Virus genome (UHGV): UHGV-0236124
From: a virus
DNA: 33,147 nucleotides
Strand: one strand, 5' to 3'
The notes beneath the pieces were generated by a model. That model did no database searches, was not told where the DNA came from, and worked only from the letters and a program-made list of their open reading frames with translations. This document shows, one piece after another, positions 16,416 through 17,228 of this stretch. Within the stretch, counting starts at the first letter, position 1; every line of letters starts with the position of its first letter. Made by a program: the position numbers and the translations under genes.

Positions 16416-17044
16416 TAGCGATAATTTTACTCATCATCCTTCACATCTGGCTCTGTAGACAGGATGGTGATCACTTCTGGAGTGAATCCAGATTAAACAT
16501 CTCATTGCTGATGCTTGATATTGAGCATCTTGCGCGCGGTAAGGGGCTGCGTTGAGATAAGAGCCAGTCATTACAAATACCAGGATTTAGCCTCGCATTC
16601 GCGGGGCTTTTTATTGCCATTACAAAAGCCACTCCCTACAGAGTGGCTTTGATAATGGCTTATACCCTACACGGGATAGCTTAACTGATATCCCTTTTAA
16701 CGGATAAAGGTATTCAAGCCTGACACATCATGCGCTGTATCGTCGCCGTATTCCCGTATTAACAGAGACCGTAGCCCGACGGGGAACTCCTTCTGCGCGA
16801 GTGTGCGGGAATAATCAAAAACGATGCACACCGGGTTTTTACCGCGTTTATGGTTCGCGGGTTTGTCCCTCATGCTCGCCAGTCCTGTGCGGGGGTGGAA
16901 GAAACAGGACACTTACACAGATTCTTGTGGGCACGATGCTATGCCTTTCTGGATTATCCCGATGCCATTCATGCAAGGCGTTGTATCAGACGTTCGTCAG
17001 AGCTGTCAGGCTGACGGGTCCTCCCGGTGGGGTGGCCTGCCACG

Positions 17045-17056
17045 GGGCGGGAGCGT
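17045..17056. other. cosN-like cohesive-end site candidate
   Basis: acgGGGCGGGAGCGTcgcgg resembles lambda cosN (acgGGGCGGCGACCTcgcgg, recalled) at about 16 of 20 positions, about 170 bp upstream of the Nu1-like gene. Confidence 0.4.
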
Positions 17057-17228
17057 CGCGGAAAAAGGCTAGTTTTTGCATTTCCATGGCGGCGGCAGCA
17101 TGTTTGGTAATTTATTGATAATTAAAAGTTATTTCTCTTTTCACCTGTACAATATTTTTTTCTCCCTGTCATTAGACCAGTTTGCAATTAATTGAAATAT
17201 ATAAATAAACCTGATTTTTACCTGCCAG

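Follow-up and report, generated by a model that had tools for sequence, protein, structure and literature searches.

The lambda-type cos site of an Escherichia coli prophage of the cdtI/Tritos type and a conserved non-coding block upstream of it

The DNA analyzed here (the window, a stretch of 33,147 nucleotides listed as virus genome UHGV-0236124) is a lambdoid prophage of E. coli. It is very probable that positions 17016-17228 of the window form the cos site of a prophage of the cdtI/Tritos type, and that this site is preceded by a pair of terminators and by a non-coding block, which may act as a folded RNA in the late transcript (Table 1). A preliminary description of the region, made from the sequence alone, had pointed out a cosN candidate and a plausible cosB. 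Judged by the comparisons reported below, this reading is correct and can be extended with a cosQ, predicted nick positions, an IHF site and the type of the small terminase subunit (TerS). The cos site of the window is a known kind of site; phage genomes that begin and end with the identical sequence have already been deposited. Recognizing it sets the physical genome ends and the packaging mode for a type of prophage that is common in E. coli.

The region studied (16416-17228; 813 bp) is 100% identical to the chromosomes of E. coli strains 6409 and YJ3, and 742 out of 5,426 complete E. coli genomes contain 80% or more of it. The gene order in the window is DNA methylase, holin, lysozyme, Rz/Rz1, the studied region, TerS (179 aa), the large terminase subunit TerL (699 aa) and a gpW-like gene, and the succession of TerS, a GpA-type TerL and a gpW-like gene is the same in lambda. 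Elsewhere in the window two RNA families were detected next to each other on the plus strand, as judged by the Rfam gathering score, i.e., isrK (59 bits) at 7519-7595 and the C4 antisense RNA (82.8 bits) at 7620-7707. As a sequence match, this pair suggests a regulatory cassette of the P1/P7-type c4/ant or the IsrK-AnrP kind in the prophage.

Table 1. Features in and around the region between the lysis cassette and the terminase genes (positions in the window; strand + or -, a dot where none is assigned).
Feature	Position	Strand	Remarks
ORF, 50 aa	16403-16555	+	Overlaps Rz stop codon; PHROG 11822, function not assigned
Intrinsic-terminator-like hairpin	16589-16612	+	Stem of 8 bp (6 G-C), then TTTTT; 3' of lysis cassette
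Long hairpin	16616-16659	.	Stem of 17-19 bp; directly after 16589-16612; contains as its core the hairpin of the preliminary description
Minus ORF, 71 aa	16697-16912	-	In RefSeq a hypothetical protein of 58 aa (16697-16873); coding sequence not conserved
Non-coding 180-bp block	16731-16910	+	Consensus fold; sharply bounded; also in lambda and DLP12
Further overlapping ORFs	16801-17118, 16850-17014	+	From the ORF list
Plus ORF, 82 aa	16824-17072	+	Runs through cosQ and cosN; mEp460_059 in the mEp460 record; broken in diverged relatives
cosQ heptamer GGGTCCT	17016-17022	+	7/7 bases identical to lambda 48473-48479
cosN motif ACGGGGCGGGAGCGTCGCGG	17042-17061	+	ACG, 12-mer GGGCGGGAGCGT, CGCGG
Cohesive-end 12-mer GGGCGGGAGCGT	17045-17056	+	Predicted nicks: 17044/17045 (top strand), 17056/17057 (bottom strand)
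Right flank of cosN CGCGGAAAAAGGCTAGTTTTTG	17057-17078	+	Common to three cosB/TerS types
cosB region	17062-17228	+	AT-rich, 31.7% G+C; 98-100% conserved along with the TerS type of the window
Type-specific segment	17079-17107	+	Bp 35-63 from left end; covers lambda R3 position; candidate TerS recognition site
IHF consensus TATCAATAAATTA	17108-17120	-	Exact match; core invariant in three cosB types
TerS	17229-17768	+	DUF1441, remote Nu1 homologue; RefSeq start 17241
TerL	17777-19876	+	GpA_ATPase and GpA_nuclease (Pfam E 4.9e-81 and 1.8e-86)

The cos site and its terminase

The preliminary description stated that 17042-17061 closely resembles the cosN of lambda and proposed an alignment to the lambda cos region as a check. 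The motif is indeed present there on the plus strand, and the local alignment with the lambda cos junction, which runs well past cosN, returned matching flanks and 8 out of 12 bases of the cohesive end. It also added an exact lambda cosQ, which had been missed, and a cosQ-to-cosN spacer of 22 bp (23 bp in lambda). The cohesive ends of lambda (GGGCGGCGACCT) and the window (GGGCGGGAGCGT) mismatch at bp 7, 8, 9, and 11, whereas the left half GGGCGG, the flanks ACG and CGCGG, and the 12-bp stagger (predicted in the case of the window) are alike. The pattern ACGGGGCGGNNNNNNCGCGG, which combines the flanks and the left half, has a single match in the window, where shuffled sequences lead one to expect 0.01. 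Feiss et al., for whom 12-base 5' ends of this kind define a lambda-like phage, report that differences at bp 7-12 are common among such phages, while the 7-bp cosQ is highly conserved (PMC4669245). Both N15 and gifsy-1 have lambda-like 12-base ends, which depart from lambda at bp 9 and 12 and at bp 8, 9, and 11, respectively (PMC4669245); the cohesive end of the window, unlike those of these two phages, differs at bp 7 too. As far as its sequence goes, the cosN of the window fits the description of lambda-like ends by Feiss et al. The 16-bp cosN shows the partial twofold rotational symmetry of lambda-like cos sites, to a lower degree than in lambda (8/16 vs 10/16, the latter value being published (PMC9026076) and also returned by our computation). 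Counted against the cos reading are this lower degree and the outcome of a search for R-type TerS repeats in cosB, which gave only weak AT-rich matches.

A blastn search of the phage collection revealed that the record of phage cdtI (AB285204) starts at the equivalent of position 17045 and that the record of phage Tritos (OV696610) ends at 17044. When both ends are considered, each of these records opens with GGGCGGGAGCGTCGCGG, with the 12-mer GGGCGGGAGCGT first, and closes with CTGCCACG. The TerS and TerL of both phages are 99.4-99.9% identical to those of the window, their cosN is the same, and the left arm up to the start of TerS (i.e., cosB) is 98-99% identical. The DNA to the left of cosQ differs from that of the window in both cases: cdtI has another sequence 5' of cosQ, and in Tritos (prophage 3 of E. 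coli LF82) this place is taken by ybcV and ybcW, with an identity of only ~78% over 16844-17044. Tritos is a plaque-forming siphovirus (PMC9928086). Coordinate 1 of the cdtI record may have been set by analogy with lambda, and the Tritos record may in turn have followed that of cdtI.

By analogy with lambda, packaging would start with the binding of the DUF1441 TerS to the AT-rich cosB, aided by an IHF bend at 17108-17120, and TerS on cosB would then place the GpA-type TerL on cosN. TerL would nick behind 17044 on the top strand and behind 17056 on the bottom one, which would produce the 12-base 5' ends GGGCGGGAGCGT, and cosQ (17016-17022) would come into use on arrival at the next cos, when packaging ends.

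The AT-rich stretch that precedes the terminase genes had been put forward as a plausible cosB, and several of its properties fit this: it directly precedes TerS, it contains a conserved IHF consensus, and its G+C content is 31.7% (26% at 17100-17228), compared with 50% over the whole window. In relatives of the window type, cosB is 98-100% conserved, while the DNA to the left of cosQ falls to 88-90%. The IHF consensus has three matches in the 33-kb window (1.3 expected by chance), of which only that at 17108-17120 is near cos. It occupies bp 64-76 from the left end, just to the right of the position of R3 in lambda (bp 50-65; PMC9026076). Lambda has, like the window, an AT-rich cosB with an IHF consensus just to the right of the R3 position, although its R1-R3 repeats are not recognizable in the window; N15, with one R3 site, lacks an IHF site (PMC9026076), in contrast to the window with its IHF consensus. 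The start codon of TerS is at bp 185 from the end in the window and at bp 191 in lambda.

An alignment of three types of cosB (i.e., those of the window and cdtI, of PhiR47_1, and of mEp460) shows that the 22 bp to the right of cosN are shared and that the IHF core ATTGAT is invariant, whereas bp 35-63 differ per type. This is the pattern expected if the latter segment holds the TerS recognition site, for which it is a candidate. Phage mEp460 has cosQ, spacer and right flank as in the window, although the cohesive end in its record differs by one base (GGGCGGGAGCGG), and its cosB diverges from that of the window ~30 bp to the right of cosN, where the TerS type changes. On the basis of these alignments, mEp460 and the window have cosQ and cosN in common but have swapped the specificity of cosB and TerS, in the way known from lambda versus 21, which provides one more natural example of such a swap and is not new in kind.

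The TerS gene had been described as Nu1-like. The sole Pfam match of TerS is DUF1441, a BLASTP comparison with Nu1 revealed no similarity (E 4.6), and a sequence search of the PDB with TerS gave no match. However, a profile-profile comparison by hhalign, based on 30 DUF1441-type and 37 Nu1-type TerS proteins from the fetched loci, linked the two types with 84% probability (E 7e-6) over 138 columns and with the same domain order. Therefore, the label holds as a statement of remote homology, not as one of membership of the Nu1 family; the preliminary description had missed that TerS is a DUF1441 protein and not a recognizable Nu1. The lambda gpA protein is 24% identical to the TerL of the window (E 5e-22). 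In the group formed by mEp460, mEp213, and LLS, which have Gifsy-2-like heads, TerL is 87% identical to that of the window (compared with mEp460_4F5), and the TerS of mEp460 and PhiR47_1 is 42% identical, mostly in the C-terminal two thirds.

A further observation concerns the N-terminus of TerL. Its first ~20 residues do not align between the window (17777-17835) and mEp460_4F5 (LR595868; 683-745), and these residues change along with the TerS type. The N-terminus of lambda gpA binds Nu1. By analogy, the change looks like a matched swap of the interface between TerS and TerL.

A conserved block with a consensus fold

Homology searches revealed that the region is a mosaic, in which the edges of the 180-bp block at 16731-16910 are sharp and its flanks are wholly different among phages. 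Lambda itself carries a copy at 46868-47030, between bor and lambdap78, which is unannotated. In the DLP12 prophage of E. coli K-12 a copy starts at 579009, between borD and ybcV, again with nothing annotated, and the block also occurs in Stx phages, whose terminases are unrelated. It is co-oriented with cos, at a distance of 132-2141 bp upstream, in each of the 76 loci with one cos. The cos site itself being known, this conserved folded block is the only part of the region that is possibly worth an experiment, and it could matter that both the best-studied phage and E. coli K-12 harbor, without annotation, a sharply bounded block with a strand-specific fold.

RNAalifold, applied to 76 distinct copies, predicted a fold with 28 pairs on the plus strand, which make up a nested pair of long-range helices, two further small helices, and a hairpin at the 3' end. 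The helices include P1 (GUAUCGU/ACGAUGC) and P2 (UAUUCCC/GGGAAUA). In this consensus fold 98.6% of the cells are paired. Variation in the helices is mostly from U-A to U-G or from C-G to U-G, and when the pair-type tables were counted by hand, the variable cells comprised ~175 with G-U, spread over 14 pairs, as against ~8 with A-C. Such G-U changes keep the pairing only on the plus strand. Changes on both sides occur in 5 of the 28 pairs, and one pair of the 3' hairpin is G-C in 41 copies, U-A in 20, and G-U in 11; the controls for pair covariation were of a kind that relatedness alone can beat. The consensus energy is -31.5 kcal/mol on the plus strand (z -5.5 relative to column shuffles) and -13.9 kcal/mol on the minus strand (z -1.65).

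We tentatively propose, on the strength of this modeled fold, that the block is a structured RNA element, not described before, in the late transcript of lambdoid phages, within which it would act as a folded RNA. If it is real, our guess is that it most likely works in cis on the late polycistronic transcript or gives rise to a processed RNA; conceivable roles are a module for processing, for stability or for the 3' end, or the origin of a processed small RNA. Upstream of cos it may move as a separate unit, found where accessory genes begin or end.

The principal alternative, which we consider rather unlikely, is that the block has no RNA function and is a recombination linker, or DNA that has recently spread at moron boundaries, with an incidental fold. 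The sharpness of its edges in many contexts is what would be expected of such a linker, as are the two copies that flank an accessory ORF in one locus (L026, see below), and the alternative also gains from the scarcity of two-sided changes (5/28 pairs) and from the distribution of the 21-mer core of the block. Among species-representative genomes this core is restricted to Escherichia, apart from tiny contigs that are probably contaminants, so that the diversity sampled is shallow. However, an incidental fold does not sit well with the strong difference between the two strands in consensus energy and z score, with a pairing of 98.6% of the cells combined with a large preponderance of G-U over A-C among the variable ones, or with an orientation relative to cos that is fixed in 76 out of 76 loci. 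The reading as a structured RNA element is the one that we tentatively prefer.

Several observations were made on individual copies. In locus L026 two co-oriented copies (5058-5236 and 6003-6186) flank an accessory ORF on the plus strand, between Rz and a lambda-type cos, and locus L065 has two copies as well; the block may mark the boundaries of accessory-gene cassettes. In several loci (L023, L162, and L176 among them) a strong plus-strand terminator, AAAATGATAA-CC-TTATCATTTTT, directly follows the block, while the copy in the window is without it; a terminator at this position would fit a plus-strand RNA that ends there. The 21-mer core was also encountered on contigs of 351 and 468 bp (L222 and L226) of assemblies assigned to Pseudomonas and Thiomicrorhabdus, as well as in some MAGs, which most likely reflects contamination with lambda or E. 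coli DNA.

The covariance models of Rfam 15 gave nothing meaningful for the block, either in the window or in the lambda copy, at E values up to 10. The small RNAs AgvB, AsxR, and Pas were considered and rejected, as they are located elsewhere, beside Q and the holin gene, and their Rfam models gave no match. The same applies to a role as a Chi site: the loop GATGGTGG of some copies is one mismatch away from Chi, and that of the window copy two.

Hairpins and open reading frames upstream of cos

Two hairpins follow each other 3' of the lysis cassette. The first (16589-16612), which the preliminary description had overlooked, folds on the plus strand with -15.2 kcal/mol (z -2.7) and has the G+C-rich stem and U run of an intrinsic terminator. 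The second (16616-16659) folds with -26.8 kcal/mol on the plus strand (z -8.4) and -30.1 kcal/mol on the minus strand (z -6.9). Its U tracts are UUUUGU on the minus strand, which is slightly better, and UUUGAU on the plus strand, and the terminator scan made no call for it. The authors of the Ayreon record annotated the equivalent hairpin as a plus-strand terminator, and it is possibly a bidirectional one. The core of this stem had been noted before as a hairpin at 16627-16650 that could be a minus-strand terminator. The hairpin is real, but the coordinates were one base off (the arms are at 16626-16634 and 16641-16649) and it is part of a longer stem; since there is no minus-strand gene upstream, a role as minus-strand terminator would have no obvious target. 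A match to the Salmonella RNA STnc560 at 16499-16678 on the plus strand (21 bits against a cut-off of 55, E 0.058) rests on the two terminator hairpins and was rejected.

The small ORF that overlaps the end of Rz (16403-16555) is listed as hypothetical in RefSeq and is also annotated in the Ayreon and mEp460 records. Its N-terminus is strongly hydrophobic, and it could encode a putative small membrane protein coupled to the lysis cassette.

For 16697-17040 the preliminary description had reported only overlapping, unconvincing ORFs in GC-rich DNA and had suggested a degraded gene. The ORFs exist, but the G+C content of this stretch is only 54%, and therefore the term GC-rich is overstated. The minus-strand ORF at 16697-16912 has 75 matches among 5.8 billion proteins, all of 41-105 aa, all from Escherichia or Shigella, and without a Pfam domain or a name. 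No long homologue was found among these 5.8 billion proteins and neither was an intact known protein matching this ORF, a finding that would have contradicted the preliminary description. Within 34 distinct homologues the variable columns are distributed 15/15/15 over the three codon positions, i.e., without bias; in many of them a stop separates the ATG from the conserved core, and beyond the edge of the block the C-terminal tails are no longer alike. The plus-strand ORF at 16824-17072 carries frameshifts or stops in relatives with 81-95% identity. Scans of every small ORF against Pfam, NCBIfam, and PHROGs yielded only PHROG families of unassigned function, which are built from the same annotations.

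On these sequence criteria, neither of the two ORFs tested seems to act like a gene, be it intact or decayed, and clear coding constraint is not supported; the idea of a degraded gene was thus not borne out. It is quite improbable that 16697-17040 is a gene remnant after all, or that the minus ORF of 58-71 aa is a real small gene. The minus frame is the only one that is open through the conserved core, and ORFs are annotated here by RefSeq and in several phage records, but the even split over codon positions, the stops before the core, the differing C-terminal tails, and the uniformly short and nameless matches (75 of 75, confined to Escherichia or Shigella) all argue against a gene on this strand. 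As for the plus ORF, its match to PHROG 17397 concerns a family built from the same annotations, and its interruption in diverged relatives speaks against it.

cos sites in other phage records

Two records of related phages show irregularities at cosN. In that of Ayreon (MF807953), ~165 bp at 2634-2795 are inserted inside cosN, at the equivalent of 17048-17060 of the window. The insert encodes a zinc-finger-like peptide fused to a duplicated internal fragment of terS and is annotated as a "putative late gene regulator". Gap filling was used for the genome of Ayreon, for which no cos was determined (PMC5764929), and the insert is probably an artefact of assembly or gap filling at the physical DNA ends; if it is real, Ayreon must be cut at another site. 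A search among phages of the mEp460 type for further records ending at cosN found only that of mEp460_4F5 (LR595868), which opens 5 nt 5' of the predicted nick and reads GGGCGGGAGCGCGG at positions 1-30. Its cosN is 3 nt shorter than those of the window and mEp460, reflecting either a real deletion or an error of assembly at the end. If assemblies break here at the physical DNA ends, the oddities of Ayreon and mEp460_4F5 would be expected, which lends some weak support to the cos reading.

That the GGGCGG...CGCGG motif is a chance or relic likeness, with packaging by another route or at another site, is hardly credible: the cos ends are predicted from the sequence, and the Ayreon record is interrupted at the motif, but an occurrence by chance is expected only 0.01 times per window, the cosQ, the spacing, and the position before TerS and a GpA-type TerL all match, and the records of cdtI and Tritos end exactly at the predicted nick.

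Neither the 12-mer GGGCGGGAGCGT nor the core of the block was encountered in any relevant paper of the collection searched. The occurrence of comparable sites was surveyed by a scan of IMG/VR for GGGTCCT-N(18-26)-GGGCGG-N6-CGCGG, which gave at least 126 matches in the fetched loci. The lambda 12-mer with a 23-bp spacer is the commonest form among the matches listed (at least 61), followed by GGGCGGGAGCGT with a 22-bp spacer (at least 21) and by GGGCGGCGCGCT (at least 9). In most of the matches listed, the cos pattern lies directly 5' of TerS and a GpA-type TerL; again among the matches listed, the lambda 12-mer pairs with Nu1/A, and GGGCGGGAGCGT with the 22-bp spacer pairs with the TerL clade of the window and mEp460. 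A paper of 2025 (PMC12315714), which cites Vahanian et al. (2017), infers the third form, GGGCGGCGCGCT, as the overhang of LLS and mEp213 and, therefore, natural variation of cosN has already been described.
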